NCBI RefSeq assembly: GCF_033372575.1
Contig: NZ_CP104094.1
Coordinates: 52,987 to 84,986, forward strand
Source of the DNA: Candidatus Saccharimonadota bacterium
GTDB lineage: Bacteria; Bacteroidota; Bacteroidia; Flavobacteriales; Blattabacteriaceae
Reading direction: 5' to 3'
DNA length: 32,000 bases
Shown here one piece after another: positions 1 through 26,640 of the stretch. The notes under the pieces were generated by a model. It ran no database searches. It worked only from the letters and a program-made list of their open reading frames with translations, and was not told the DNA's origin. A program made the translations under genes and the position numbers. Every line of letters begins with the position of its first letter. Within the stretch, counting starts at the first letter, position 1.

Positions 1-468
1 ACCGTTTTCCCCATGTAAATAACCATAAGCATATTTATTTTTTATTTCTATTAAAGAAGATTTTTTATTATTATCTTTTATTGAATTAATTATTACATAA
101 GATAAATTATTTTTTTTTGCCCACATTATATACATTCTTTCTAGAATTTCTACCCAATTATAACTATCTTTTCCACCAATACCAGTCTTTATTTTAATTA
201 AAGCATTAAATTTATATTTTTTAGGAAATATTATTTCTTTTAATTTTTCTATTAATTTATAAATTTTTTTTTTATATATATTTATTTCATATTTAATATT
301 ATTATTTTCAAATAAATTATATAATAATTTTATATCTTTATTAATTGACATAATAATATTATAAATTTTTATTATTTTTTTATGTTTATTTAATTTTCTT
401 AATTTTTCTATATTTATTATATTTTTTATATTATTAATTGTAATATTTATATCGTCATTTATAAACAT
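1..468 (-). CDS. prfB: Peptide chain release factor 2, N-terminal ~156 codons (gene continues past the window start)
   Basis: Manual minus-strand translation from the ATG at 466-468 runs uninterrupted to the window edge: MFINDDINITINN...FNALIKIKTGIGGKDSYNWVEILERMYIMWAKKNNLSYVIINSIKDNNKKSSLIEIKNKYAYGYLHGENG. This matches the RF2 block (A)GAGG.E.QDW..ML.RMY..WA...G.KS...G..AYG.L..E.G(VHR). It is missing from the ORF track, probably because it is open-ended. Confidence 0.8.
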   Translation of the reverse strand, partial: MFINDDINITINNIKNIINIEKLRKLNKHKKIIKIYNIIMSINKDIKLLYNLFENNNIKYEINIYKKKIYKLIEKLKEIIFPKKYKFNALIKIKTGIGGKDSYNWVEILERMYIMWAKKNNLSYVIINSIKDNNKKSSLIEIKNKYAYGYLHGENG

Positions 469-561: not shown

Positions 562-563
562 TT

Positions 564-1917: not shown

Positions 1918-4900
1918 TTAATTTTTAATTATATCAAAATATATTTTTTTATTATTATAAATAATAAAATATTTATTATTAATATTTTTATAAATTATTT
2001 TGTTAGTTAATGTATCTTTACTAATAATATTATTATATTTAAAAATTATTTTAAATATATAATATTTAATATTTTTATTTATAATAATATTAATTTTATC
2101 AGTTAAAAAATAATTTTTTTCTTTTCTTAAAATTTGAATTTTTCTAATTAAATCTCTAATAAAACATTCATTTTTTAAATCATTAGTAATATTTATATCT
2201 AAAATAATAATAATATTATTTTTAGAATACATAATAATATTATTATTTATATTTTCATGCTCTATAAAAATTTCATTTAATTTAATTTTTATTTTATTAT
2301 TTTTAATATTTAAATTGATATATTTATTATTATAAAATTTTTCTATTTCTTTTTGATTTAATTTATTTAATAATTCAGAAATTTTATTAATATTATTTTT
2401 ATATTTTGGACCTAATATTTTATAATTTAATTTTATTTTTTTTTTTATATATTTTTTTATTTTATTAATATTTATAAAATTAATATTTTTAATATTAACT
2501 TCATTTTTTAATAAATTTATAATTTCTTTATTTTTAAAAAATTTATTATTATGTTTATTTTTTACTATATATACATTATTTAAAGGTTGTCTAACTTTTA
2601 TATTTTTTTTTTTTCTTAAAGATAATATAATAGTAGAATATTTTTTAATATATAACATATTTTTTTCTATAGAATAATTAATATATTTATTTTTATATTT
2701 TGGAAATGATTGTAATATTATATTTACTTTATTTTTTTTTTCAATATAATATAATTTTTTATTTAAATATTCCATAACAAATGGAGATATTGGATAAGAT
2801 ATTTTAAATATTTGTTTTAAACATATATATAAAATATTATAAGCTGATATTTTATCATTATCATATTTTTTTTTCCAAAATCTTTTTCTTGATAATCTAA
2901 TATACCAATTACTTAAATCATTAATAACAAAATTATATATATTTCTAGCTATAGAAGTAATATTATATAATTTATAATTTTTATAAGTTTTTAATAATAA
3001 TTTATTAATCTTTGATAATATCCAATAATCAATATATTTTTTTTTATATTTATCTTTAATATTAAAATTATCAATTTTAGAATAATTATAAAAAAATATA
3101 AATATATTATATAATGTATTAAAAAATTTATTTTTTATTTTTTTTATATTATTAATATTAAATTTTAAATTTTCCCATGGTAAATTATTATAAACCATAT
3201 ACCATCTTATACAATCTGGTCCATATTTTTTAATAATTTTAAATGGATCTATTGTATTTCCTTTACTTTTTGACATTTTTTTACCATTTTTATCTAAAAT
3301 TATTCCTAATGGTAATACATTTTTATAAGATATAGAATTTGAAATAATAGTTGATATAGTATGTAATGTAAAAAACCAACCTCTAGTTTGATCAATACCT
3401 TCTGTTATAAAATCATAAGGTAATATTAATTTTTTTTTTTTAAAAGGATAATTATGTTGAGCATAAGGAGAAACTCCAGAATCAAACCATACATCAATTA
3501 CATCTGGTTCTCTATACATTTTTTTATCTTTTTTTGAAGATAAAATAATATTATCAATAAAATGTTTATGTAAATCAATATTATTTTTTAAAGGATTTAT
3601 TTTCATAAATCCTAATTTTATTGATTTTTTAATTTCTTTATTTAATTCTTTTAATGATCCTATAACTATAAATTCTTTTTCATTTTTAGTTTTCCATATT
3701 GGTAATGGAGTTCCCCAAAATCTAGATCTTGAAATATTCCAATTTTTTATATTTTTTAACCAATTTTTAAATTTATTTTTTATAAAATTAGTAGAACACC
3801 AATTTATATTATTACTTAATTTAATTAATTTATTTTTTATTTTTTTTAAATTTATAAACCATGATTTTATTGGATAATATATAATTGGTTTATTAGTTCT
3901 CCAACAATGTGGATATAAATGTTTATATTTTTTTATTTTTAATATTTTTTTTTTTTTTTTTAAATATTTTATTATTATTTTATCTACTGAAAATTTTTTA
4001 TTTTTATAATATTCTTTTTTAATATATTTTCCCCCCAATCCTAATGGAACTTGTTTTATAAATTTACCATTATTATCTACTATAGGATAGAAATTATCAA
4101 TATTATTTAATTTAGCTATTTCAAAATCTTCTTTACCATAATTTGGTGCTATATGTATAATACCTGTACCTACGTTTTTTTTTATTATATTCAATGTATC
4201 ATTAATTATTAAAAAATTATTTTTTTTATTATCTATTGGTTTAAACCATTTAATTAATTGTTTATATTTTAAACCAATTAATTTTTTACCTAAAAATTTT
4301 AATAATATTTTATATTTTTTATTATTTAATATTTTTTTTATTGAATATTTAGATAAAATTATATAAATATATTTAAAATCATATATATTATATATTTTTA
4401 CTAAATAATAATACATATCATGTTTTACCAATAATGCAGAATTAGATGGTAAAGTCCATGGTGTTGTAGTCCAAGCTAATAAATATATATTTTTTTTTTT
4501 AAAAAAATTATTATTTTTTAACTCAAAAAATACATATATTGAAATATCAATAATTGGTTTATGAGTATATGGAAAATTAAGTTCTTGATAACTAATTGGT
4601 GTACCAGCTATAGGGGAATATGGTAATACTTTATATTCTTTATATAATAAATTTTTATTATATATTTTTTTTATTATCCACCAAATACTTTCTATATATT
4701 TATTAGAATAAGTAATATAATAATTTTTTTTATTAAAAAAATAACCAATATTATTAGTAAATTTTTTCCATATAATTAAATTTTTTTTTATAAATTTTTT
4801 ACAATTTTTATTGAATAATTTAACAGTAATTTTTTTTCCTATATCTTTTTTTTTAATTTTTAATAGTTTTTCAACTTCTATTTCAATAGGTAAACCATGA

Positions 4901-5228: not shown

Positions 5229-5268
5229 ATATTATAAAATATATATAAAAAATAAATATGGATAATTT

Positions 5269-6525
5269 TTAATTTTTAATATGTTTATAATAATAACCTA
5301 GTTTTTTTAAATCTTTCCAAAAATTATGATAAGATTTATTAACAGTATTAGGATTTTTAATAATTATATTTTTATTTTTATATTTTATAGGTAAAATAGA
5401 AAATGCCATAGCTATTCTATGATCTTTATAAGTTTTTATAATAATATTATTTTTTTTAATATTTATAAATTTTATTATTTCTATAGAATCATTAGTAATA
5501 TAAGTAATAGTTCCAGTTTTTTTTAATTCATTATGTAAAGCTATTAATCTATCAGTTTCTTTAATTTTTAAAGTGTTTAATCCAGTTAATAAACATTTTA
5601 TTTTTAATAAAGAACATGTTAATATAATTGTAGGAGCTATATCAGGAGTAGATTTTAAATTTAAATTAATATATTTAGGAAATTTAAAGTTTTTTTTTTT
5701 TTTAATTATTATACTTTTATTTTTAAATTTAGTATTAATTCCAAAATATTTTTTATATATATTAGCTATTTTACTATCACCTTGTAAACTATTTTTATAA
5801 AATTTTTTTAATTTTAAAGTAATATTTTTTAAAAATGTAATTATAGAATAAAAATAAGATGCTGAACTCCAATCAGATTCTATATAATATTTTATATTAT
5901 TTTTAATATTTTTAATATTTTTTATATATATAATGTTATTTTTTAATTTTAATTTTATTTTTAATTTTTTTAAAATTTTTATAGTCATATTAATATACGA
6001 AAATGAAGTTTTATTATTTTTTAAAATTATTTTTAATCCTTTTTTTAATTTTGGACCTATTAAAATTAAAGAAGTAATATACTGACTACTAATATTTGAA
6101 TTAATACTAATTTCATTTTTATTTAATTTTTTTCCAATTATTTTGATTGGTGGATAACCTATTTTTTCAATATATTTTATATTTGCTCCTAATTTATTTA
6201 AAGCATCAACAAGATGAAAAATAGGTCTATTTTTCATTCTTTTTGTACCAGTTAAAATAACATTTTTATTATTTTGTATTGCGAAATAAGATATTAAAAA
6301 TCTCATTACTGTTCCAGCATCTTTAATATTAATTATTTTTTTATTTGATTTTAAAGAATTAATTAAAATTTTAGTATCTCTAGAATTAGATAAATTAAAT
6401 AATTTAATATTATTAAATAATTTATTAATTATTAATTATCTATTAGATTCACTTTTAGAACCATTAATATTAATATTAATATTTTTATTTTTAGGTTTAT
6501 TATATTTAATTTTTAAATAAATCAT
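5269..6525 (-). pseudogene. aroA: 3-phosphoshikimate 1-carboxyvinyltransferase (EPSP synthase), full-length frame of 418 codons interrupted by one in-frame TAA at 6436-6438 (codon 30)
   Basis: The track ORF 5269-6306 carries these motifs: KRMKNRPIFHLVDALNKLGA, SSQYITSLIL, ESDWSSASYF, LQGDSKI, KIKETDRL, DHRIAMAFS. Manual extension upstream in the same frame gives MIYLKIKYNKPKNKNININING-SKSESNR-*-LIINKLFNNIKLFNLSNSRDTKILINSLKSNKKIINIKDAGTVMRFL. The ATG at 6523-6525 overlaps the mnmG stop as TAATG. Confidence 0.85.
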
Positions 6526-8345
6526 TATTTTATATATATTATTAATATATTTATATCAGATGGTGTAATACCACTAATTCTAGATGCTTGACCTATTGAT
6601 AAAGGACGAAAATAATTTAATTTTTCTTGAGCTTCTTTTGATAATGATTTAATTTTAAAATAATTAAATTTTTTAGGAATTTTAAAATTTTCTAATTTTT
6701 TCATTAATTTAACTATTTTTTTTTCTTTTTTTATATAATATTCATATTTAATATAATTAGAGATTATATGTTTATATTTAATAATATATTTAATATTTTT
6801 TTTAATAAATTTATTATTTTTTAATAATTTAATTATATAATCAATAGTAATTTTAGGTATTAATAATAATTTTTTTATATTTATTTTTTTATTATTAAAA
6901 ATAATATTTTTATTTTTTAAATAATTAATAATTATTTTTATTTTTTTTTTTTTTTTAATTACTTTTTTAAAATTTTTTTTTTTTATAAGTCCTAATTTAT
7001 AACCTTTTTTAGTTAATCTAATATCTGCATTATCTTGTCTTAATAAAATTCTATATTCAGCTCTAGAAGTAAAAATTCTATAAGGTTCTTTAGTACCTTT
7101 ATTTACTAAATCATCAATTAAAACTCCTATATAAGATTCATTTCTTTTTAATATAAAAGGTTTTTTATTATTTATTTTTAAATAAGAATTTATACCTGCT
7201 ATTAAACCTTGACATGCTGCTTCTTCATAACCAGTAGTTCCATTTATTTGACCAGCAAAAAATAAATTATTAATTTTTTTTGTTTCTAATGTTAATTTTA
7301 ATTGTATAGGATTAAAGTAATCATATTCTACAGCATAACCATATTGTATAATTTTTACATTTTCTAATCCTTTTATAGTTTTTATTGATTTATATTGAAT
7401 ATTTTTAGGTAAACTAGTTGAAAAGCCATTAATATAAATAATATTGCTATTCCATCCATCTGGTTCAATAAATATTTGGTGTTTATTTTTATTTTTAAAT
7501 TTTAATACTTTATCTTCAATAGAAGGACAATATCTAGGGCCATTATTATTTATAATACCATTAAAAATAGGGGATTTATGAATATTTTTAATGATTATAT
7601 TATGAGTTTTAGGATTAGTAAATGTAATATAACATTTTTTTTGTTTTTTTAATTTTTTTTTTTTAAAAAATGAAAAATTATTATTATTTTTATCACCTTT
7701 TTGTTTTAATAATTTTTTAAAATTAATAGTATTTTTTAAAATTCTAGGTGATGTACCTGTTTTCATTTTATTATATATAATACCATGTTTTTTTAATTGT
7801 TCACTAATACCTATAGAAGATTTTTCATTTATTCTACCCCCATTATAAGATTTATTTCCAATACATATTTTACCATTTAAAAATGTACCATTAGTTAATA
7901 TTACTGATTTACTAAATATTTTATTATTATTTTTAGTTATTACACCTAAAATAATTTTATTTTTAATAATTAATTTAATTACTATATCTTGTAAAATATT
8001 TATTTTTTTTTTTTTTAATATTTTTAAAATATTTTTAATATATAATTTTCTATCTATTTGTGCTCTTGGACTCCACATTGCTGGCCCTTTAGATTTATTT
8101 AACATTCTAAATTGTATCATAGAATTATCAGCTAATTTTCCCATATAACCACCTAATGCATCAATTTCTCTTACTATTTGACCTTTTCCTATACCACCAA
8201 TAGAAGGATTACATGACATTTTTCCAATAGAATTAATATTCATAGTAATTAATAAAGAATTAGCCCCTAATTTATAGGAAGCTAATATAGCTTCTATTCC
8301 TGAATGTCCACCACCAACTATTATAATATCATATTTTTTATTCAT
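6525..8345 (-). CDS. mnmG: tRNA uridine 5-carboxymethylaminomethyl modification enzyme MnmG (GidA)
   Basis: 606 aa. It has the FAD motif YDIIIVGGGHSGIEA, plus GPRYCPSIEDK, FFAGQINGTTGYEEAA and RPLSIGQASRISGITPSDI. Confidence 0.95.
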   Translation of the reverse strand: MNKKYDIIIVGGGHSGIEAILASYKLGANSLLITMNINSIGKMSCNPSIGGIGKGQIVREIDALGGYMGKLADNSMIQFRMLNKSKGPAMWSPRAQIDRKLYIKNILKILKKKKINILQDIVIKLIIKNKIILGVITKNNNKIFSKSVILTNGTFLNGKICIGNKSYNGGRINEKSSIGISEQLKKHGIIYNKMKTGTSPRILKNTINFKKLLKQKGDKNNNNFSFFKKKKLKKQKKCYITFTNPKTHNIIIKNIHKSPIFNGIINNNGPRYCPSIEDKVLKFKNKNKHQIFIEPDGWNSNIIYINGFSTSLPKNIQYKSIKTIKGLENVKIIQYGYAVEYDYFNPIQLKLTLETKKINNLFFAGQINGTTGYEEAACQGLIAGINSYLKINNKKPFILKRNESYIGVLIDDLVNKGTKEPYRIFTSRAEYRILLRQDNADIRLTKKGYKLGLIKKKNFKKVIKKKKKIKIIINYLKNKNIIFNNKKINIKKLLLIPKITIDYIIKLLKNNKFIKKNIKYIIKYKHIISNYIKYEYYIKKEKKIVKLMKKLENFKIPKKFNYFKIKSLSKEAQEKLNYFRPLSIGQASRISGITPSDINILIIYIK

Positions 8346-8785
8346 ATAAAATTTAATTTTGATTTTTTAAAAAAATATTTATAAAAATAAAAATTTTGTT
8401 TATAATTCATAATTTTTAAAGATTTTTTATCAATATCATTATAACCAATTAAATGTAATATAGAGTGAATAATTACTATTTTAATTTCTGTATCAAAACC
8501 TTGTTTCCATATAATAGAATTATATAATACTTGATCATAACTAATAAAAATATCTCCGTATAATATATTTTTATTATTCGAATAATTAAAACTAATAGTA
8601 TCAGTATAATAGGATTTATTTAAAAATTTACTATTTATTTCTAATATATATTTATTATTACAAAATATATAATTTACTTTATAAAGTTTTTTATTTTCTT
8701 TATAAATAATTTTTTTAATAATTTGTTTAATTTGTTTAATATTATAAATAGTAATTTTTTTATTATAAATAAAAAATTTAATCAT
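8342..8785 (-). CDS. ybeY: rRNA maturation endoribonuclease YbeY
   Basis: 147 aa with the zinc motif HSILHLIGYND (H-x3-H-x5-[HD]-like). Its TGA stop overlaps the mnmG ATG as ATGA. Confidence 0.85.
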   Translation of the reverse strand: MIKFFIYNKKITIYNIKQIKQIIKKIIYKENKKLYKVNYIFCNNKYILEINSKFLNKSYYTDTISFNYSNNKNILYGDIFISYDQVLYNSIIWKQGFDTEIKIVIIHSILHLIGYNDIDKKSLKIMNYKQNFYFYKYFFKKSKLNFI

Positions 8786-9779
8786 GTTATTTAATAATTT
8801 AATAGATAATATTAATGTAATTTGTATAAGTGGTAATGGTGGAAATGGTAAAGTACATTTTACTTATAAAAATAAAAAAATAGGTAAACCTGATGGTGGA
8901 AATGGAGGGAATGGTGGAAATATAATATTTATAAGTGATAAAAATATTTTTACATTATTTAATATAAAAAAAATTTATAAAGCTTATAATGGAGAAAATG
9001 GTAAAAATAATTGTAAAACTGGTAAAAATGGTAAAAATTGTATAATAAAAATTCCAATAGGTACAAAATTGATTTATATTGATAAAAATAAAATAAAAAA
9101 AATAAATTTTAATAAAAATAATATAAGAAAAATAATATTATTAGGAGGTAACGGAGGAAAAGGTAATTATTTTTATAAAAAATCTAATGATCAAAAAACT
9201 AAAAAATATACTAATGGTAAAAAGGGAATTAATAAAAATATAAAATTAATTTTAAATATAAAAGTTGATATTGGAATAGTAGGATTTCCAAATACTGGAA
9301 AATCTACGATATTATCTTTATTAACTAATAATAAACCTAATATAGATAATTATAATTTTACTACTATAACTCCAAATTTAGGTATATATAATAATTATAA
9401 AAAATATAATATTATTATAATGGATTTACCAGCTATTATAGAAAAATCTTATAAAGGTAAAGGAATAGGAAATAAATATTTAAGACATATAAAAAATTAT
9501 AAATTATTATTATTAGTAATTAATTATATTTCAATAAAAGATTTTATTTATCAATTAATAACTTTAAAAAAAGAATTATATAAAAGTAATGTAAAAATTA
9601 ATAAAAAAAAAACTATTATTATTTTATCTAAATCTGATAAATTAAATAAAAAATTAATTAATATTGTTAGTAATTTTTTAAAAAAAAATAAATATTATTA
9701 TTGTTTTTTTTCTAAAAAAAAAAAAAAATTATATTTAAATTTAATTAAAAAAATTAATTATTTTTTTAAATTTAAATAA
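8784..9779 (+). CDS. obg: GTPase Obg/CgtA
   Basis: 331 aa. It has the Gly-rich Obg fold (SGNGGNGKVHF...PDGGNGGNGGNIIF...GGNGGKGN) followed by GFPNTGKST. Confidence 0.92.
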   Translation: MLFNNLIDNINVICISGNGGNGKVHFTYKNKKIGKPDGGNGGNGGNIIFISDKNIFTLFNIKKIYKAYNGENGKNNCKTGKNGKNCIIKIPIGTKLIYIDKNKIKKINFNKNNIRKIILLGGNGGKGNYFYKKSNDQKTKKYTNGKKGINKNIKLILNIKVDIGIVGFPNTGKSTILSLLTNNKPNIDNYNFTTITPNLGIYNNYKKYNIIIMDLPAIIEKSYKGKGIGNKYLRHIKNYKLLLLVINYISIKDFIYQLITLKKELYKSNVKINKKKTIIILSKSDKLNKKLINIVSNFLKKNKYYYCFFSKKKKKLYLNLIKKINYFFKFK

Positions 9780-10783
9780 TTAATTAAATATTTTATATCA
9801 TTAGGTATATCAGTAATAAATTTAATTTTTTTTTTAGTAGTTGGATGTTTAATTGTTAAAGAATAAGCATGTAACGCTTGTCTTTGTAAAATATTAAAAC
9901 AATTATTAATAATATTAGTATATTTAAATTTATTATAAAATTTATTAAAATTATATAATATTTTATTTCCTCCGTATATATCATCATTAAATATAGGATT
10001 TCCAATATAATTAAAATGTACTCTTATTTGATGAGTTCTTCCAGTTTTAATAATACATTTTATTAAAGTTAAAAACTTATAATTTTTTATTATTTTATAT
10101 TTAGTAATTGCTAATTTACCATATTTTTTGTTTGAATAAACTCTCATTTTAATTCTATTTTTAATATTTCTTCCAATATAATTTTTTATTATATTATTAT
10201 TTTTTCTTGGTTTACCCCATACTAATGCTATATATTTTTTTTTTATTTTTTTATTTAAAAATTGTAATCTTAAATTATTATAACTATTAATATTTTTAGC
10301 AATTATTAACAAACCAGAAGTATTTTTATCTAATCTATGTAATAAACCGAATCTATAATTTAAATAATTTAAATTATTTATTTTTTTTTTTAAAAAATAA
10401 TATTTTAACCAATTAATTAAAGTATTTTTATAATTTCCATGTCCTGGATGTACAATTAAACCAGGTTGTTTATTAATAATTAATATATCATTATCTTCAT
10501 AATGAATATTTATTTTAATATTTTTATTTTTGTAAATATAATTTTTTCTTTTTTTATAAAAAAAATCTTTTATATAAAAAAAAATTATTTTATCATTAAT
10601 ATTTAATTTATTATTTTTTTTTATTTTCTTATTATTTAATAATACATTACCAATTTTTATATTATTTTGTATTTTTTTTCTTGAAATTTTTTTTTTTTTA
10701 AAATAATTAAATAAATATTTATCAATTCTTATATTTTTTGTAAAATATTTTTTATTTATATATATTATTTTTTTTTTTAACAT
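9758..10783 (-). CDS. rluD: RluA/RluD-family 23S rRNA pseudouridine synthase
   Basis: 341 aa. It has an S4-like N-terminus, HRLDKNTSGLLIIAKN, and GRTHQIRVH. Confidence 0.88.
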   Translation of the reverse strand: MLKKKIIYINKKYFTKNIRIDKYLFNYFKKKKISRKKIQNNIKIGNVLLNNKKIKKNNKLNINDKIIFFYIKDFFYKKRKNYIYKNKNIKINIHYEDNDILIINKQPGLIVHPGHGNYKNTLINWLKYYFLKKKINNLNYLNYRFGLLHRLDKNTSGLLIIAKNINSYNNLRLQFLNKKIKKKYIALVWGKPRKNNNIIKNYIGRNIKNRIKMRVYSNKKYGKLAITKYKIIKNYKFLTLIKCIIKTGRTHQIRVHFNYIGNPIFNDDIYGGNKILYNFNKFYNKFKYTNIINNCFNILQRQALHAYSLTIKHPTTKKKIKFITDIPNDIKYLINYLNLKK

Positions 10784-10796
10784 TTTAAATTTAATA

Positions 10797-11165
10797 TGGA
10801 GTTGGCGGGATTTGAACCCGCGTCCATAATAAAAATATTAAATATTTTTTACATATTTATCTAATTTTAATAAGATTTTTTTTAATAAATTAGCAAATTA
10901 ATAAAAAAAAATCTTCTATTTTATGTTATTAATATAAAATCTAAAATAGAAAAAATGATTTTATATTTTGTAAAAATCTTAATTTATTTAATTTATTAAA
11001 TATTTAATTTAATAAATATCTTGCTCTTAAATCATTTAAGCAGCAAGATTATAATAATTAGTTTTTCCTTGTATTTATTATAATATTTTTTTAAAGTGTA
11101 ATATAAAAAACACTATATGAATATTTTAATATCTTTTAATATGTCAAATCCAATTTTACAACCCC
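10797..11165 (-). ncRNA. ssrA: tmRNA (SsrA), standard one-piece form. Predicted tag is GKTNYYNLAA, encoded at 11036-11068 including the TAA
   Basis: The 5' end is GGGGTTGTAAAATTGGATTTGACAT and the 3' end is GGACGCGGGTTCAAATCCCGCCAACTCCA. The acceptor has a G3:U70 pair (Ala identity). The internal frame reads GGA AAA ACT AAT TAT TAT AAT CTT GCT GCT TAA, and the stop sits in a TCTTGCT/AGCAAGA helix. Confidence 0.9.
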
Positions 11166-11195
11166 TTATTAATAATATAATAAATATTATTAAAC

Positions 11196-11948
11196 TTAGC
11201 AATCTTCATTATAATGTATATTATTTATATTTTTAATATTATTAATAATATCTTTAGATAATATTTTATATTGTCCTAGTTTAATATTATTATTAATTTT
11301 TAATCCAGCAAAATATATTCTATTTAAATATAATATTTTATAACCTATTTTATTAAATATTCTATGTATAATTTTATTCCATCCTACAGTAATTGTAATA
11401 ATTAATGATTTTTTATTATTATTAAATATTTTTATATTATTAATTTTTATTTTACCTTCTTTTAATTTTATACCATTTTTTAAAATTAATAAATCTTTTT
11501 TATTTAAATTTTTATTTAAATATATTTTATATTTTCTTTTTATTTTATATTTAGGATGAGTTAAATATTGAGATAATTTTCCATCATTAGTTAATAATAA
11601 TAAACCAGTAGTATTTTTATCTAATCTACCAATAGGAAAAATACCTAATTTTTTGTATATATTAGGAATAAAATCCATAATAATTTTTCTATTTTTATTA
11701 TCTTTTACTGTAGTAATACAATTTTTAGGTTTGTTAAATAAAATATATATTTTATTTTTAAATTTTAAATTAGAATTAACATATTTAATATTATCATCAT
11801 AATTAACTTTATAACCTAATTGTTTAATAATTTTTCCATTTACTGATATTAACCCAATTTTTATTAGTTTATCCGCTTTTCTTCTAGAACATATTCCACT
11901 ATAAGCAATATATTTATTTAATCTTATTAGTTTTTTTATATTTTTCAT
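11196..11948 (-). CDS. rluB: RsuA/RluB-family rRNA pseudouridine synthase
   Basis: 250 aa. It has an S4 domain (LNKYIAYSGICSRRKADKLI), GRLDKNTTGLLLLTNDG, and THPKYKIKRKY. Confidence 0.85.
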   Translation of the reverse strand: MKNIKKLIRLNKYIAYSGICSRRKADKLIKIGLISVNGKIIKQLGYKVNYDDNIKYVNSNLKFKNKIYILFNKPKNCITTVKDNKNRKIIMDFIPNIYKKLGIFPIGRLDKNTTGLLLLTNDGKLSQYLTHPKYKIKRKYKIYLNKNLNKKDLLILKNGIKLKEGKIKINNIKIFNNNKKSLIITITVGWNKIIHRIFNKIGYKILYLNRIYFAGLKINNNIKLGQYKILSKDIINNIKNINNIHYNEDC

Positions 11949-12567
11949 ATAAAAATAATATATTTTTAGATTTTAAAATATTATTTAATATACCATTTAT
12001 AAAATTAATATTATTTTTAGATGAAAAAATTAATATTATTAATTTATATTCATTAATAATAATTTTAATATTTATTTCATTATAGAAAATAATAAATTCA
12101 CAAATAGCTATTTTAATTACTATTAAATCAATAATATTTATTCTATTTATACTCCAATTTACTAAATAATTTTTAATAATATCTAATAATATTTTATCAT
12201 TTTTTTTTATATAATTTATTATTTTAATAATAAAATTTAAATAATCATAAAAATTAATAAATATATTATATTTTAATTTTAAAAATAATATATATTTAAT
12301 AATTTCTTTATCTTCATATTGTAAAAAAAAATTTTCATTTAATTTATTTATATTTTTATTTATGTTATTAATTATATTTATTTTATTAATTTTATTAATT
12401 TTATTAATTTTATTAATTTTATTAAAAATTTTATTAATTTTTTTATTTAAATATTTAAAATTTTTATTTAAATAATATAAATAATTAAATTTATTATTGT
12501 AGTTAATAATAAATAATATTTTCATTATTTTTATTCTAAAATAATTTTTTATTTTTATAAATTTCAA
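11914..12567 (-). CDS. nusB: Transcription antitermination factor NusB with a long low-complexity N-terminal extension
   Basis: The C-terminal half matches NusB: NWSINRINIIDLIVIKIAICEFIIF...IIINEYKLIILIFSSKNNINFINGILNNILK. The N-terminal ~90 aa are repeat-rich (KINKINKINKINKIN). The 3' end overlaps the rluB start by 35 nt. Confidence 0.75.
   Translation of the reverse strand: MKFIKIKNYFRIKIMKILFIINYNNKFNYLYYLNKNFKYLNKKINKIFNKINKINKINKINKINIINNINKNINKLNENFFLQYEDKEIIKYILFLKLKYNIFINFYDYLNFIIKIINYIKKNDKILLDIIKNYLVNWSINRINIIDLIVIKIAICEFIIFYNEINIKIIINEYKLIILIFSSKNNINFINGILNNILKSKNILFLYEKYKKTNKIK
12381..12425. repeat. 9-nt tandem repeat TTTTATTAA x5, in frame, encoding (KIN)n in nusB
   Basis: Read directly from the sequence. 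Confidence 0.8.
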
Positions 12568-12610
12568 TTGAATAATTATTTTATTATTATTAATAAATAA
12601 ATTATTAATA

Positions 12611-13510
12611 ATGAATAAATATAATCAAGAGATTATAAAAAATAAAATTTATAATCAAGACAATAAAAATTTAAATAATAGTTTTAATAAACCTTTTAAT
12701 AAAAGAAGTTTTTATAAACCTTTTAATAAAAGAAGTTTTAATAAACCTTTTAATAAAAGAAGTTTTTATAAACCTTTTAATAAAAGAAGTTTTTATAATA
12801 AAGAATATTATGATTATTTAAAGGATAAAGAGGAGGAGATTAAACCAATATATAGTAAAACTTTAAAATCAAGAAAAAAAATATTTTTTTTGGATGTATT
12901 AGATACTATAACAGGGGATTATTTATTATGCCTAACAGAAAGTAAAAAAATGTTATTAAAAGATAATAATAATTTTTTTAAAAAAGAAAAAATTTATATA
13001 TATAAAGAAAATTTAGAATTATTAAAACAACATTTAGATGATATTATAAAATTTATTTATAGTAAAAAAGGTAAAGAAGTTATTTATGATAAAGAAATTT
13101 TAAAAAAAAATATTAAATTATTAGAAGAAAAAGAAAAACTTTTTTATAATAAAAAAAAAGGAGAATTAGAATCAATTTATGATGATGATGAATACTATCA
13201 AGATATTAATCCAGAAATAAATAAAAAATTTTATGATAGTATAAATAAAAGTATAAATAGAGGTAAAAATAAAGGAAAAAATATTAATCAAGATATTAAT
13301 CAAGATATAAAAAAAGATCTTAATAAAGGTATAAATAAAGGGATTAATCAAGATAAAATAAATAAAGATAAAAAAATAATAAAAGATAAAAAAATAAATA
13401 AAGATAATAAAATAATAAAAGATAAAAAAATAAATAAAGATAAAAAAATAAATAAAGATAAAAAAATAATAAAAGATAAAAAAATAATAAAAGATAAAAA
13501 AATAAAATAA
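12611..13510 (+). CDS. DUF3276 / PUR-alpha-like nucleic-acid-binding protein with repeat expansions at both termini
   Basis: The core YSKTLKSRKKIFFLDVLDTITGDYLLCLTESKK...KEKIYIYKENLELLKQHLDDIIKFI matches my recollection of the Bacteroidota DUF3276 pattern (FSK.V.AG.RTYFFDVK.T..GDYYLTITESKK...HKI.LYKEDF.KF). The N-terminus has (KPFNKRSFY)x4 and the C-terminus has (KDKKI[IN])n. Confidence 0.75.
   Translation: MNKYNQEIIKNKIYNQDNKNLNNSFNKPFNKRSFYKPFNKRSFNKPFNKRSFYKPFNKRSFYNKEYYDYLKDKEEEIKPIYSKTLKSRKKIFFLDVLDTITGDYLLCLTESKKMLLKDNNNFFKKEKIYIYKENLELLKQHLDDIIKFIYSKKGKEVIYDKEILKKNIKLLEEKEKLFYNKKKGELESIYDDDEYYQDINPEINKKFYDSINKSINRGKNKGKNINQDINQDIKKDLNKGINKGINQDKINKDKKIIKDKKINKDNKIIKDKKINKDKKINKDKKIIKDKKIIKDKKIK
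12689..12796 (+). repeat. 27-nt tandem repeat x4 (AAACCTTTTAATAAAAGAAGTTTTTAT), in frame
   Basis: Read directly from the sequence. Copy 2 differs by TAT->AAT. Confidence 0.9.
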
Positions 13511-13749
13511 AAGATAAAAAAATAAATAAAGATAATAAAATAATAAAAGATAAAAAAATAAATAAAGATAAAAAAATAAATAAAGATAAAAAAATAATAA
13601 AAGATAAAAAAATAATAAAAGATAAAAAAATAATAAAAGATAAAAAAATAATAAAAGATAAAAAAATAAATAAAGATAAAAAAATAAATAAAGATAAAAA
13701 AATAAATAAAGATAAAAAAATAAATAAAGATAAAAAAATAAATAAAAGA
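13351..13749 (+). repeat. Array of 18-nt tandem repeats (AAAGATAAAAAAATAAAT / AAAGATAAAAAAATAATA, >20 units) with a 128-nt higher-order duplication. It spans the DUF3276 stop codon
   Basis: Read directly from the sequence. The block starting GATAAAAAAATAAATAAAGATAATAAAATAATA at 13385 recurs at 13513, an offset of 128, with ~119 identical nt. Confidence 0.9.
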
Positions 13750-13812
13750 TAAGTAAGAAAAATTTAAAAAATATTACATAAATAAATAATAAATATTTAT
13801 TTATGTAATATT

Positions 13813-15159
13813 ATGGATTTAAAAATTTGTATAGTAGGTAAATCAAATGTAGGTAAATCTACATTATTTAATTTATTAATTAAAAAAAAAAAATCTATAA
13901 TTAATAAGAATGAAAATACAACTAAAAATAGAAATTATGGTATTTTAAAAATAAAAAAAAAAATTTATTATATAATAGATACTGGGGGATATTATGAAGA
14001 ATATAAAAATAATGTTTTAAAAAAAAAAGTTATTGAACAAATATTATATGGTATAAAAGAATCATTATTAATTTTATATGTTATAGATGTAATTAATGGT
14101 ATAACATATTTAGATAAAAAATTATCATTAATTATTCGTAAATATAATAAACCTACATTTTTATTAATTAATAAAATAGATATAAAAAAATATAATTCTA
14201 AAAATAAATATTATGAATATTATAAATTAGGATTTTATAAAATATTTACTATTTCCTGTACACATAATATTGGAATAAAAAAATTATATAAGAATATATA
14301 TAATTTTTTTATTAAAGAAAAAAATAATATTAATAAATATAATAATAATTTTAAAATTTCAGTAGTAGGAAAACCTAATACAGGAAAATCAACATTTATA
14401 AATAATTATTTAAAAGATTATAATAAAAGTATTGTATCTAATATTGAAGGTACAACAATAGATACATTATTTTTTTATTTAAAAAATAATAAAAAAAATT
14501 TTATAATAATAGATACACCAGGAATAATAAAAAAATTTAAATTTAGTAAAAAAATTCAAAATGAATATTTATTAAATACAATTAATATAATAAAGGAATC
14601 AGATATATGTATTTTAATGATAGATAGTAAAATAACAAAAAATGATATATATATATATAATAAAATATTATTATATAAAAAAGGATTAATTATTTTATTT
14701 AATAAAATAGATTTATTTAATAATAAAGAAAAAAAAGAAATTATTTTAAGTATAAAAAATTTAATAAAAAATAATTTTCCATATTTATTAATATCAAATA
14801 AAAATAAATTAAATGAAAATATAATAAATAAAATAAATAATATAATAAATATGATATATAAAAATAGAAATAAAAAAATTTCTACAAGTTTATTAAATAA
14901 TAAATTATTATTAAAAATAAATAAAAAAATAAAAATAAATAATAAAATATTAAAAATAAAATTTTGTTATCAATTAAAAAATAAAAAATTTCCTAGTTTC
15001 GTATTAATATCTAATTTAGAAAAAAATATTAATTTAAATTATAAAAAATATATAGAAAATATTATAATAAAATTATTTGATTTTTATGGTGTACCAATAG
15101 AAATATCATTTAAAAAAAATAAAAATAATGTTAACAGATTCATTAATAAAAGAAAATAA
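13813..15159 (+). CDS. der: Ribosome-assembly GTPase Der (EngA), two tandem G domains
   Basis: 448 aa. Motifs: GKSNVGKST...DTGG...NKID, then GKPNTGKST...DTPG...NKID. Confidence 0.92.
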   Translation: MDLKICIVGKSNVGKSTLFNLLIKKKKSIINKNENTTKNRNYGILKIKKKIYYIIDTGGYYEEYKNNVLKKKVIEQILYGIKESLLILYVIDVINGITYLDKKLSLIIRKYNKPTFLLINKIDIKKYNSKNKYYEYYKLGFYKIFTISCTHNIGIKKLYKNIYNFFIKEKNNINKYNNNFKISVVGKPNTGKSTFINNYLKDYNKSIVSNIEGTTIDTLFFYLKNNKKNFIIIDTPGIIKKFKFSKKIQNEYLLNTINIIKESDICILMIDSKITKNDIYIYNKILLYKKGLIILFNKIDLFNNKEKKEIILSIKNLIKNNFPYLLISNKNKLNENIINKINNIINMIYKNRNKKISTSLLNNKLLLKINKKIKINNKILKIKFCYQLKNKKFPSFVLISNLEKNINLNYKKYIENIIIKLFDFYGVPIEISFKKNKNNVNRFINKRK

Positions 15160-16378
15160 AAAAAAATATATTTTAAGTTTAAAAAAAAGAAAATTTAAAA
15201 ATATTAATATAATAAAAGAAATATTATTTTTATATAAAAAACAAAAAAATTATATAATATTATTAGAAAAATATAATAGAATAATAAATAAATATTCAAA
15301 AAATTTTTTTAAAAAAAATAAAATAAAAATAAAATATAAAAAAATATTAAATATAAAAAATAAAAGTAAAAAACTTAAAAATGAATTATTAATAATTAAA
15401 GAAAAAATATTTAATATTAAAATTAAATTACCAAATATTATAAATGAATTATATTTTAAAAAATATAAAAATATTAAAAATAATAAAATTATTTATAAGA
15501 ATAAAAAATATAAATTATATTTAAAAAAAAATAAATTATTATCACATATAGAATTATCTAAAAAATTTGAATTATTTGATACTAATACTGCTAGTAAAAT
15601 AAGTGGTACTGGTTTTGTTATATATTCAGGTATAGGATTAAAATTATATAATTCTTTAGTTAAATATTTGTTATTTATAAATAAAAAAAAAGGTTATAAA
15701 GAATATAAATTACCTTATTTAGTAAATGAACAATCAATATATGGAACTGGACAATATCCAGATAAAAAAAATCAATTATATAATATATTAAAAGATAATT
15801 TATATTTAATACCAACAGGAGAAGTACCATTAATAAATTTATATAAAAATAAAATTTTTAAAATAAATAATTTACCTATAAAAGCTCAAACATATACTAA
15901 TTGTTTTAGAAGAGAAGCTGGATCATATGGTAAAAATGTAAAAGGTTTAAATAGATTACATCAATTTGGAAAAGTAGAAATAATTGAAATTATGGATAAT
16001 AAAAATTCTAATTTAAGATTATTTAAAATGTTAGAACATATAAAATATGTATTAAAAACATTAAAATTATATTTTAGAATAATATTATTATCATGTAATA
16101 ATATAGGATTAACTTCATCAATAACATATGATTTTGAAGTATATTCATTTGGTCAAAAAAAATGGATAGAAGTTAGTTCATTATCTAATTGTTTAGATTA
16201 TCAATCAAATAATTTAAATATATATTATTTAAATAAAAATAATAAAGAATTATGTCATACTTTAAATGGTAGTTGTATATCAATTCCTAGATTATTATTA
16301 ACAATTATAGAAATGTATCAAACAAAAAATAAAATTAAAATACCTAAGGTTTTAATACCATTTTATAAAAATGAATAA
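15128..16378 (+). CDS. serS: Seryl-tRNA synthetase
   Basis: 416 aa. The N-terminus MLTDSLIKEN matches the MLD.K.IREN pattern. Other motifs: TGEVPL, FRREAGSYGKNVKGLNRLHQFGKVE, and NGS.ISIPR. It overlaps the der 3' end by 32 nt. Confidence 0.92.
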   Translation: MLTDSLIKENKKKYILSLKKRKFKNINIIKEILFLYKKQKNYIILLEKYNRIINKYSKNFFKKNKIKIKYKKILNIKNKSKKLKNELLIIKEKIFNIKIKLPNIINELYFKKYKNIKNNKIIYKNKKYKLYLKKNKLLSHIELSKKFELFDTNTASKISGTGFVIYSGIGLKLYNSLVKYLLFINKKKGYKEYKLPYLVNEQSIYGTGQYPDKKNQLYNILKDNLYLIPTGEVPLINLYKNKIFKINNLPIKAQTYTNCFRREAGSYGKNVKGLNRLHQFGKVEIIEIMDNKNSNLRLFKMLEHIKYVLKTLKLYFRIILLSCNNIGLTSSITYDFEVYSFGQKKWIEVSSLSNCLDYQSNNLNIYYLNKNNKELCHTLNGSCISIPRLLLTIIEMYQTKNKIKIPKVLIPFYKNE

Positions 16379-16872: not shown

Positions 16873-16888
16873 AAATAATAAAAAAAAA

Positions 16889-19493: not shown

Positions 19494-20582
19494 ATGAATA
19501 AAGTATTAGTAATTAATGTAATTAATAAAATTATTAAAATAGCTTTATTAAAAAAAAATAAATTATTAGAATATAGGGAATATAAATATAAAAAATTATT
19601 ATCAGTAGGTGATATATTTAATGGAAAAATAAATTATATATCAAAAGGGATGAAGGTAGCATTTATAGATATAGGATATAAAAAATATGGAATTTTACAT
19701 TTTGAAGATTTATTAAAAAAAAATGAATTAAAAAAAAATGAATTAAAAATAGGTAATAATATATTGGTACAAATATTAAAAACACCAATAAATGATAAAG
19801 GACCTAAATTAACAAGTAAAATAAAAATAATAGGTAAATATATAATATTAATACCTAAATTAAAAAAAATTTTAATATCAAGAAAAATAAAAAATAATAA
19901 TATTATAAAAACAATAATAGATAAAGTAGAAAATAAGAAAAAATATGGAATAATAATAAGAACATTATGTAAAAAAAATAATATAAAGGTAATAAAAAAT
20001 GAAATAAAATATTTAAAAATAAAAAATAATTTAATAAAAAAAAATAATAAAAATAATAAAAAATATACAAATAATAATATTTTAAATTATATATTAAAAG
20101 AAAAAAAAATAATAATATGTAATAATTTAAGTTTATATAAAAAAATAATTAATTATTTAAATTTAAATAATAATAATAAAATTAAATTATATAATAGTAA
20201 TATACCAATATTTAAAAAATATGGAATTGAATTACAAAAAAAAATATTATTAGGTAAAAAAGTATATTTATTAGATGGATCTAATTTGATAATAGAAAAA
20301 ACAGAAGCATTAAATGTAATAGATATAAATAGTAATATGATAAGAAATAATAAAAATTCATTATTAGAAATAAATTTAATTGCAATTAAGGAAATAATAA
20401 GACAAATAAAATTAAGAAATATGGCAGGTATAATAATAATAGATTGTATAAATATGAAAAAAAAAAAATATAATAATATAATATATGAATATTTAAAAAA
20501 AAATATAATTGAAGATAATATTATATTACCTCCTAATAAATTAAATATTATTCAAATAATTTTAAATAAAAAAAGTATTTAA
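19494..20582 (+). CDS. rng: Rne/Rng-family ribonuclease (RNase G-like, C-terminally short)
   Basis: 362 aa. It has an S1 domain (VGDIFNGKINYISKGMKVAFIDIGYKKYGILHFEDL) and a catalytic-core-like segment (EKTEALNVIDINS...NLIAIKEIIRQIKLRNMAGIIIIDCI). Confidence 0.8.
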   Translation: MNKVLVINVINKIIKIALLKKNKLLEYREYKYKKLLSVGDIFNGKINYISKGMKVAFIDIGYKKYGILHFEDLLKKNELKKNELKIGNNILVQILKTPINDKGPKLTSKIKIIGKYIILIPKLKKILISRKIKNNNIIKTIIDKVENKKKYGIIIRTLCKKNNIKVIKNEIKYLKIKNNLIKKNNKNNKKYTNNNILNYILKEKKIIICNNLSLYKKIINYLNLNNNNKIKLYNSNIPIFKKYGIELQKKILLGKKVYLLDGSNLIIEKTEALNVIDINSNMIRNNKNSLLEINLIAIKEIIRQIKLRNMAGIIIIDCINMKKKKYNNIIYEYLKKNIIEDNIILPPNKLNIIQIILNKKSI

Positions 20583-24501: not shown

Positions 24502-25286
24502 TTAATAAATATATAAATTAAAAATAAAACCAATATGATTAATAATATTTAAAACATAATTATTGTTAAATATTAAATATTGGCCTTTTATACCTTTTAA
24601 TTTAAGAGTAATATTTTTAATTTTATTTAATTTTATTATTTTAATAATTTTTGGATATTTAATAATTGGATAGTTAAAATAAAATATTTTATTATTATTA
24701 ATAATGTATTTATAATAATTAGTTTTAATTAAAATATTAATAATTTTTTTTTTAATTTTTAAAATATTAATTTTTTTTTTAAATTTATTAGTTAACATTA
24801 TTCTGAAATTAGTTTTATCCGATATATATTGTTTTACTATTTTTTCTATTACACCAGCTATATATCTATTAGGAGTATAAGCAATTATAATAGCTTTAAT
24901 TGCTCCTTGATCCATTAATCTATTGATAAAATTTGATTTTATAGTTACACCTATTTTAAAATTACTTGTAAATGATAAATAAACTATATGTTTTTTAAAT
25001 TCGAAATTATTAATTTTATTATTATTATTTGATGAACATAAAATAGGATTAAATATTTTAATATTAAATATTTTGATAAAATAACAGTTTTTACAATATC
25101 CATTTCTAAAAATATTTTTTTTTTACATAATAAACAATTATTATTTAAAAATTTAAATATAAAATATTTATTAATATAATTATTTAATAATAATAATTTA
25201 TTATTTATGTTTAAATAATATAATAAAGTATAATTATATTTTATTAATAATTTATCTAAAATTATAATTTTTTTAAATTTTAACAT
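24502..25286 (-). pseudogene. DUF2797-family protein, split by a frameshift within an A10 tract (plus-strand T-run 25115-25124)
   Basis: The two track ORFs (24502-24915 and 24984-25298) plus my manual extension of the downstream frame give ...FKFLNNNCLLCKKK / (K)KNIFRNGYCKNCYF...FKIGVTIKSNFINRLMDQGAIKAIIIAYTPNRYIAGVIEKIVKQYISDKTNFRIML...LKGIKGQYLIFNNNYVLNI. This matches my recollection of DUF2797 (C.NC...GFCKSCFF...VKVGVTR...RWIDQGA...PNRYLAG..E...SDKT.WR.ML...GIKGQYLIF). The likely start is the ATG at 25284-25286, because the track's TTG start lies inside tRNA-Asn. Confidence 0.8.
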
Positions 25287-25290
25287 AATA

Positions 25291-25363
25291 CTCCTCAAGC
25301 TGGATTCGAACCAGCTACCTTCTGATTAACAGTCAGATGCTCTACCTGATGAGCTATTGAGGA
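25291..25363 (-). tRNA. tRNA-Asn (anticodon GUU)
   Basis: The reverse complement is TCCTCAATAGCTCATCAGGTAGAGCATCTGACTGTTAATCAGAAGGTAGCTGGTTCGAATCCAGCTTGAGGAG. The anticodon loop is CT-GTT-AA. Confidence 0.9.
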
Positions 25364-25407: not shown

Positions 25408-26640
25408 ATGAAAAAAATAGAATTATTATCACCAGTTGGTAATTATGATAGTTTATATGCCGCTATAGAATCAGGAGCTGATTCAATTTATTATGGTATA
25501 GAACAATTAAATATGAGAGCTAGTAAAATTAATTTTACTATAAAAGATATTAAAAAAATAAATGAAATATGTAAAAAAAAAAGAATAAGAAAATATTTAA
25601 CATTAAATACTATAATATATGATCATGATATCAATATGGTAAAAAGAATTTTATATGAAGCAAAAGAATATAAAATAGATGCAATAATAGCAATGGATAG
25701 TTTCGTTATAAAATATTCTAATAAATTAAAATTACCAATTCATATTTCTACTCAATTAAATATAACTAATTTTGAATCATTAAAATTTTATTCAAAATAT
25801 TCAGATGTATTTGTATTAAGTAGAGAATTAAATTTGAATCAAATAAAATATATAACTAATAAGATAAATATATATAATTTAAAAGGATTTTCAAAAAAAA
25901 AAATAAAAATAGAAATATTTTGTCATGGGTCTTTATGTATGGCAATATCAGGAAAATGTTATTTAAGTTTACATACATATAATTCATCAGCAAATAGAGG
26001 AGTATGTAAACAAAATTGTAGAAGAAAATATTTAGTAAAAGATAAAGATTCAAATATAGAATTGGAAGTAGATAATGAATATATAATGTCTTCTAAGGAT
26101 TTGTGTACAATAAATTTTTTAGATAAAATAATTGATTCAGGGGTAAGTATATTAAAAATAGAAGGAAGAAATAAATCACCAGAATATATAAGTAAATGTA
26201 CTAAATATTATAAAGAAGCTATAAAATCTATATATAATAAAACTTATAATAAAGAAAAAATATTAAGATGGATAAATGAATTAAAAAAAGTATATAATCG
26301 TGGTTTTTGGAGTGGATATTATTTAGGGGAAAAAATAGGACAATGGAATAATTGTTATGGTTCAAAAGCAATAAAAAAAAAAATATTTATAGGATTTGTA
26401 AAAAAATATTATAATAAAAAAAAAATAATGGAAATTGAAGTAAAATCTAATAATATAAAAAAAAAAGATAAAATATTAATTATAGGTAATAATTTGGGGG
26501 TAAAAGAAATAGAAATAAAATTATTAAAAAATGAAAATAAAGAAATAAAAAATAAAATAAAAAAAGGTAATATATGTACTACTTATGTACCTTTTAAAGT
26601 ATTTAAAAATAATAAAATATATAAAATTATAAATAAATAA
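25408..26640 (+). CDS. Peptidase-U32-family protein (PrtC/YegQ-like; likely an Fe-S RNA hydroxylation-type enzyme rather than a protease)
   Basis: 410 aa. Motifs: KIELLSPVGNYDSLYAAIESGADSIYYG, the Cys cluster HGSLCMAISGKCYLS...SANRGVCKQNCRRKY, and ILKIEGRNKSPEY. Confidence 0.85.
   Translation: MKKIELLSPVGNYDSLYAAIESGADSIYYGIEQLNMRASKINFTIKDIKKINEICKKKRIRKYLTLNTIIYDHDINMVKRILYEAKEYKIDAIIAMDSFVIKYSNKLKLPIHISTQLNITNFESLKFYSKYSDVFVLSRELNLNQIKYITNKINIYNLKGFSKKKIKIEIFCHGSLCMAISGKCYLSLHTYNSSANRGVCKQNCRRKYLVKDKDSNIELEVDNEYIMSSKDLCTINFLDKIIDSGVSILKIEGRNKSPEYISKCTKYYKEAIKSIYNKTYNKEKILRWINELKKVYNRGFWSGYYLGEKIGQWNNCYGSKAIKKKIFIGFVKKYYNKKKIMEIEVKSNNIKKKDKILIIGNNLGVKEIEIKLLKNENKEIKNKIKKGNICTTYVPFKVFKNNKIYKIINK

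Follow-up and report, generated by a model that had tools for sequence, protein, structure and literature searches.

The closest described systems to the locus reported here are the Shikimatogenerans symbionts of beetles. Candidatus Shikimatogenerans bostrichidophilus is a Bacteroidota endosymbiont whose hosts are bostrichid beetles, and the shikimate pathway is the sole metabolic service described for it; grain- and wood-boring beetles are thought to retain Shikimatogenerans only for the tyrosine precursors that serve the cuticle, and the aroA product of these symbionts is the target of glyphosate. A class I, glyphosate-sensitive EPSP synthase (EPSPS) has been described in both Shikimatogenerans silvanidophilus and S. 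bostrichidophilus, and the published Shikimatogenerans genomes, which measure 164–200 kb, are reported to keep all shikimate genes but aroE (PMC8113238, PMC10284843). Ongoing pseudogenization has been documented in tiny symbiont genomes (PMC12188211). The aroA gene examined here is like the class I EPSPS genes of Shikimatogenerans in being their orthologue, with the shared synteny mnmG-aroA-rpsT-tRNA-Glu-ileS, an amino acid identity of 66–72% to AroA of the other S. bostrichidophilus genomes and the catalytic blocks kept; unlike the published genomes, it carries an internal stop codon in a genome from which aroQ is gone.

The window, a stretch of 32 kb that was analysed as a whole, comes from a 156,922-bp genome of S. 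bostrichidophilus, as a 345-amino acid ORF within it is 100% identical to WP_420095088.1; this genome is the smallest of the clade among those compared. The G+C content of the window is 10–17%, and it is dense in translation-related genes (hflX, ileS, mnmG, ybeY, obg, rluD, der, serS, nusA, infB, mnmE, gltX, trmD, glnS, tyrS, tsaD, rpmE, and queA), with RNA genes comprising nine tRNA genes, tmRNA, RNase P RNA, and the start of the 16S rRNA. The closest relative found is CP104096.1 (160,463 bp, hereafter L010), with ∼90% nucleotide identity to the window genome. The 157-kb and 160-kb genomes are both absent from the supplementary genome table of Kiefer et al. (2023), and no literature mention of CP104096 or neighbouring accessions was found in this context. 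The features discussed below are collected in Table 1.

Table 1. Position and basis of the features described at and around aroA in the window.
Feature	Position	Strand	Basis or remark
Class-I peptide chain release factor gene, 5' part (PCRF domain)	1..345	-	Runs off the window edge
rpsT (S20) loss junction, aroA to tRNA-Glu	5230..5268	.	rpsT at this place in L004–L009
aroA (EPSP synthase), 418 codons plus terminal TAA, one interruption, probable young pseudogene	5269..6525	-	Frame, Pfam, alignment
ATG codon 74, first canonical start 3' of the stop	6304..6306	-	RefSeq start, WP_420095088.1 (345 aa)
ATA codon 32, GenBank start of WOX79202.1 (387 aa)	6430..6432	-	Depositor annotation
Premature stop TAA, codon 30; ancestral TTA (Leu), changed base 6437	6436..6438	-	Relatives' DNA
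Substrate-binding motif GSKSESNR, codons 22–29 (E. coli K22, S23, N26, R27)	6439..6462	-	Alignments
TAATG overlap of mnmG stop and aroA start	6523..6527	-	Sequence
aroQ deletion junction (type II 3-dehydroquinate dehydratase)	11166..11195	.	30 bp, rsuA-like stop to tmRNA

The aroA frame runs on the minus strand from an ATG at 6525–6523 to a TAA at 5271–5269 and holds 418 sense positions with one internal stop. The initial annotation had reported a single in-frame TAA at codon 30 of an otherwise full-length EPSPS frame, and both statements are confirmed: the TAA at 6438..6436 is the only internal stop in 418 codons, and the frame matches the EPSP_synthase profile PF00275 with 240.9 bits against a cut-off of 22.8, with the conserved blocks aligned. 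The profile match covers the two-domain fold, and the product matches EPSPS chains in the PDB with E values of 1e-52 to 1e-46. With the AroA of a relative as the tblastn query, a single HSP (6462..5272) spans the stop, and the 29 codons 5' of it are homologous coding sequence; aligned to 22 full-length AroA proteins of Bacteroidota, they match the GSKSESNR-L-LII block, and the translation around the stop reads NINGSKSESNR*LIINKL. The alignments show each of the blocks GSKSESNR, SSQY, TPDIA, KIKETDRL, DHR, and NKSY, and the substrate-binding residues checked by their E. coli EPSPS numbering (K22, S23, R27, S169–Q171, D313, K340/E341/R344, H385/R386, and K411) are conserved in the window aroA when the motif upstream of the stop is counted in.

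In E. coli EPSPS, K22, S23, and R27 bind S3P and PEP or glyphosate. The placement of the stop directly after the K-S-x-S-N-R motif, as first described, is borne out by alignment with E. coli K22, S23, N26, and R27, immediately C-terminal of which the stop takes the position of Ala28. The frame is interrupted at a point where the TAA cuts the motif (codons 22–29) off from the remaining 388 codons. The expectation that the motif would be lost if translation restarted downstream also holds, the next ATG being codon 74, and a product restarted at ATA32 or Met74 would be without the equivalents of K22, S23, and R27, so that EPSPS activity would be expected to be lost. The overlap of aroA with mnmG is present as reported; as a sign of continued expression it is weak, because in the relatives aroA starts 4–45 nt downstream of mnmG and because co-transcription says nothing on whether the product works. 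The GenBank accessions of the neighbouring genes are WOX79177 for hflX and WOX79179 for mnmG, but aroA, located between ileS and mnmG, bears WOX79202; this out-of-order number and the non-canonical ATA start suggest that the aroA coding sequence was added or curated by hand.

Comparison with orthologues places the lesion in the window genome only. In the alignment of the 22 AroA proteins, the stop column contains leucine in 21 and phenylalanine in Karelsulcia, and at the DNA level six of seven relatives read AGA TTA TTA and one reads AGA TTG TTA, where the window reads AGA TAA TTA. Read against the relatives' DNA, the stop is explained by one T>A substitution in the coding strand (plus-strand base 6437), which altered a conserved leucine codon. 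The alignment with sister strains that had been proposed for this gene thus yields a leucine codon (TTA or TTG) in the DNA of all seven relatives, and the internal TAA is a presumably inactivating lesion private to the window genome, with no counterpart in the orthologues compared.

Gene order around the locus was compared with seven other S. bostrichidophilus genomes (L001 and L004–L009, with gene tables for L004–L009), the hosts of which include Bostrichus capucinus, Dinoderus porcellus, Trogoxylon impressum, Rhyzopertha dominica, and Lyctus brunneus. The order in these relatives is nusB, pseudouridine synthase, aroQ, tmRNA, rluD, obg, ybeY, mnmG, aroA, rpsT, tRNA-Glu, ileS, hflX, tRNA-Met, ferredoxin, tRNA-Ser, and release factor; the R. 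dominica symbiont is without the ferredoxin gene, mnmG and hflX are uncalled in the fragmented L008, and L001 has the same tRNA and tmRNA layout as L004–L009. The window retains this order minus aroQ, rpsT, and the ferredoxin gene. A gene for AroQ of 144–155 amino acids stands at the conserved site in eight relatives (L004–L010 and, through cluster P0125, L001), and aroQ is absent both from this site and from the whole 32-kb window. A profile built from 20 Shikimatogenerans AroQ proteins matched ∼20 other Shikimatogenerans genomes or drafts and no protein of the 156,922-bp contig; an earlier search with a single AroQ sequence is a weak negative, as it missed the AroQ of genomes that have aroQ, for example that of R. 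dominica, all of which the profile retrieved.

Further gene content differences were observed along the same region. The ferredoxin gene (between tRNA-Met and tRNA-Ser, window 562–563) and rpsT (5230–5268), which are present in most relatives, are missing from both the window genome and L010, and the ferredoxin gene is missing also from the R. dominica symbiont (L007). The greA gene (155 amino acids), which in L010 lies at 4000–4467 between nusA and the RNase P RNA, is missing at window 16878–16888, and tblastn over the whole window found no greA. In L008 (CP099821, the Lyctus brunneus symbiont, sequenced at 17x), positions 8189–14850 hold ileS in three pieces, serS in two, a truncated der, and uncalled mnmG and hflX, a state due to numerous frameshift errors or else to extensive decay, which calls for caution in the use of this genome as a reference.

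L010 is by far the closest relative found. Codon-wise alignment of 10 neighbouring genes gives a dS of 0.23, a dN of 0.054, and a dN/dS of 0.24 between the window and L010, with protein identities of 85–92%, and all 10 genes align over their full length with no frameshift. In L010, mnmG is followed by an A+T-rich spacer of 161 bp (15246–15406) and then by tRNA-Glu and ileS, and aroA is gone; alignment of this spacer with aroA gave only scattered short A+T-rich matches, which are uninformative as to remnants of the gene. The aroQ gene of L010 (10001–10459) is present with all invariant residues intact. The two sister genomes have each lost a different step of the shikimate pathway. Elsewhere in the comparison, blastn with the whole window matched 19494–20053, the 5' part of rng, to L010 twice, at the start of rng (691–1) and at ∼820–1379. 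The second match falls in a 203-amino acid ORF (L010 768–1379) between rng and infB that consists mostly of Lys/Asn/Glu-rich repeats (KINKKINKK) and has no equivalent in the window; the match may reflect low-complexity similarity rather than duplication.

The age of the lesion can be bounded from the sequence of aroA itself. The ratio of window-to-relative over relative-to-relative distance, computed against seven more distant relatives, is 0.99 for aroA and 0.91–1.01 in nine neighbouring genes, and aroA has private changes at 10 of 185 otherwise invariant columns, a number equal to that in two relatives with intact genes. Beyond the one stop, the gene contains no further lesion and no sign of faster amino acid change. 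Stops are created by 6.5% (uniform) to 10% (A+T-biased) of single substitutions in aroA, and the gene contains 15 homopolymer runs of at least six bases, one of them 14 long, all of which are in frame. The presence of one stop only and the lack of any frameshift in these 15 runs cap neutral evolution of aroA at ∼28–45 substitutions (95% level), equal to a divergence of 2.3–3.6%. As the terminal branch that leads from the split with L010 to the window genome measures ∼0.11 substitutions per synonymous site, a neutral phase covers at most ∼20–30% of that branch; aroA was thus under purifying selection for ∼70–80% or more of it, and the stop is recent and independent of the deletion of aroA in the sister genome. 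The lack of excess divergence together with the single lesion points to the youth of the pseudogene and not to a functional gene.

The best explanation, with a probability of roughly 0.8, is that the stop is a real and recent nonsense mutation that occurred in the course of shikimate pathway loss, and thus a case of ordinary gene decay. A very recent nonsense mutation was one of the options raised in the initial annotation, and it gains support from the single step from TTA to TAA, from the deletion of aroQ, and from the deletion of aroA in the sister genome. A T>A change would have turned the Leu30 codon TTA of aroA into TAA, translation would end after 29 residues, and products of a downstream restart, being without the Lys, Ser, Asn, and Arg residues for S3P and PEP, would lead to loss of the enzyme. 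Tolerance of the mutation would stem from the end of selection on the shikimate pathway in this sub-lineage, aroQ having probably been deleted already in the same genome and aroA having been deleted in its sister, and the recency of the lesion would account for the fact that the rest of aroA still looks perfect. Relaxed selection as the cause of the stop is inferred; the aroQ deletion here and the aroA deletion in CP104096.1 are an independent sign of dispensability. The alternative description of the gene as an ordinary decaying pseudogene, which had also been put forward, as a refuting condition, stands in so far as the pathway decays across genomes, but not for this one gene by itself.

Several observations speak against this reading of aroA as a pseudogene in a dead pathway. 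Selection evidently maintained the gene along the greater part of the branch that saw the loss of aroQ, so that either both the aroQ and the aroA events are recent or aroQ became dispensable earlier while aroA did not. All Shikimatogenerans are without aroE and yet the pathway is considered functional in them; aroE is apparently dispensable in the whole genus, as aroQ may earlier have been. The depositors, in addition, annotated aroA as a coding gene. A relocated and unannotated aroQ in the part of the 157-kb genome beyond the 32-kb window is conceivable.

An error of sequencing, assembly, or consensus, or a minority allele of a polyploid symbiont population, would leave the real aroA intact with TTA at codon 30, and this is unlikely. 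The lesion is a single base in a gene that is otherwise flawless and free of relaxed evolution, another public assembly of the clade (L008, from Lyctus brunneus at 17x) is visibly fragmented, and one homopolymer frameshift in the window (the A10 tract of the DUF2797 gene) is possibly a length error, all of which would fit an error; against it, substitution errors are much rarer than errors of homopolymer length, of which the 15 runs of at least six A or T in aroA, all in frame, bear no trace, and 10 neighbouring genes are full length and free of frameshifts relative to the sister genome. The deletion of aroQ and the sister's deletion of aroA are structural and impossible as base-calling errors, which makes a real nonsense mutation likely beforehand, and the GenBank and RefSeq annotations both work around the stop. 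It is considerably more doubtful still that the 156,922-bp and 160,463-bp genomes are co-resident in one beetle and share the pathway between them, with aroA supplied by the former and aroQ by the latter. The window aroA would in that case be the only copy of the system and still be selected, in keeping with its lack of excess divergence, and the TAA must then be an error, a polymorphism, or a stop that is tolerated through read-through or a split enzyme. Under such sharing each gene lost from one genome would be retained intact by the other, and L010 does have an intact aroQ, but the aroA of the window carries the stop.

The remaining alternatives accept the stop and let the cell overcome it. 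Some EPSPS might be made through low-level read-through of UAA by a near-cognate tRNA or through termination and re-initiation at the ATA or ATT codons, in which case a peptide of 29 residues and a fragment of 387 residues would assemble non-covalently; such bypass is improbable. It would agree with an aroA that is otherwise intact in every catalytic block, with its overlap and probable co-transcription with mnmG, with the ATA and ATT codons right after the stop, the first of which the depositors took as the start, and with the general view that translation in highly reduced symbionts is error-prone. In E. coli, termination is most efficient at UAA-U. Among the 26 genes of the window, 23 end in TAA, two in TGA, and one in TAG, and the four bases TAAT, identical to those of the internal aroA stop, end 14 genes and are the context most used for true termination within the window. 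The stop is conserved in no relative, no leaky context and no downstream structure was found as a signal of programmed read-through, and the 131 nt around and downstream of the stop fold with −13.3 kcal/mol, where shuffled sequences average −13.0 (z = −0.09). A release-factor gene with a PCRF domain is present, no suppressor tRNA occurs among the nine tRNAs of the window, and, with aroQ gone here and the sister genome able to dispense with aroA, there would be no selective pressure for a rescue. The option of a stop that is read through or otherwise bypassed, as the initial annotation had it, is thus not supported, TAA being a normal terminator, TAAT its commonest context, and the stop being unconserved and without local RNA structure. 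Programmed read-through was likewise rejected as a candidate on the TAA-T context shared with 14 true terminators and on RNA folding no different from shuffles, and rescue by frameshifting, hopping, or slippage was rejected on the reading frame, which is identical on both sides of the stop.

Reassignment of TAA to a sense codon has a next to negligible probability. Other code changes have arisen under extreme A+T content and extreme genome reduction, and both apply here (10–17% G+C); but the 23 genes that end in TAA do so where their orthologues predict, and the other 25 genes of the window cover their family profiles essentially end to end with no in-frame stop in any of them. The scan for in-frame TAA in other conserved genes and for a tRNA with a UUA anticodon, which had been proposed as a check, was carried out on the window and was negative on both counts (0 of 25 genes and none among nine tRNAs). 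On this stop usage the candidate was rejected, and an altered genetic code is refuted for the window.

A young nonsense pseudogene, the preferred reading, can also be set beside known cases of decay in endosymbionts. Like the nonsense pseudogenes of other endosymbionts, the window aroA carries one presumably inactivating point mutation and has intact orthologues in relatives (PMC12188211), and the clean deletions of the neighbouring non-essential genes aroQ, rpsT, ferredoxin, and greA resemble endosymbiont reductive evolution at large. Unlike such pseudogenes in general, the gene hit here belongs to the pathway considered the symbiont's reason to exist, and the two closest genomes have independently lost different steps of it.

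In Hodgkinia, a symbiont of cicadas, lineages have split with complementary gene loss. The present pair of genomes is similar in that two tiny genomes with ∼90% identity are each missing a different pathway gene (aroQ in the window genome and aroA in CP104096.1), but the complementing copy that would be needed, the aroA of the window, is broken, residence in one host is only hypothetical, and the losses in the 20 kb compared are not neatly reciprocal, as the window genome has neither greA nor aroQ. In Buchnera and Blochmannia, frameshifted genes are rescued by transcriptional slippage at poly(A) tracts. Similarly, A+T-rich genes that are broken in the DNA may here still yield a product, for which the DUF2797 gene with its A10 tract is the candidate in the window; the lesion of aroA, unlike the frameshifts of those systems, is a stop in the same frame that arose by substitution and is not repairable by slippage.

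Other observations in the window concern genes apart from aroA. The DUF2797-family gene (24502–25298, minus strand) is split into ORFs of 104 and 137 amino acids by a frameshift in the A10 tract at 25115–25124, and when the frames are joined at this tract the Pfam score climbs from 109 to 176 bits, with coverage of positions 7–225 of the 227 in the profile; the upstream piece ends in the window's only TAG stop. This may be a second pseudogene; otherwise it reflects a homopolymer length error, or the gene is a candidate for rescue through transcriptional slippage. An ORF with a DUF3276 domain (12611–13510, plus strand) encodes 299 amino acids against ∼138 in several relatives and contains, near its 5' end, 4.4 copies of a 27-bp repeat; an 18-bp repeat in 21.9 copies (KINKDK-type) within 13355–13752 extends ∼240 bp beyond the stop of this ORF, and similar lysine-rich repeat ORFs occur in L010. 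An intact gene of the U32-peptidase family lies at 25408–26640 (plus strand), and its best NCBIfam match is TrhP, with a score below the family cut-off. TrhP is a prephenate-dependent tRNA U34 hydroxylase; should this assignment be correct and the shikimate pathway no longer work, the enzyme would be without a source of its co-substrate.

The kind of event described here, a young pseudogene in a shrinking endosymbiont genome, is ordinary, and its place is unusual, as it has struck the pathway from which the symbiont takes its name. The finding indicates no new mechanism, and its value is evolutionary and, for annotation, practical. Both public annotations show aroA as a normal protein of 345 or 387 amino acids, so that pathway reconstructions built on them would wrongly score the EPSPS step as present. 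Should the smallest genomes of the clade carry a broken aroA and no aroQ in one case, and no aroA in the other, their hosts may no longer depend on the service; alternatively, the hosts may obtain it in some other way, or the symbiont may be on its way to loss or replacement. This would be a concrete example of an obligate symbiont that persists after the one function known for it has gone.
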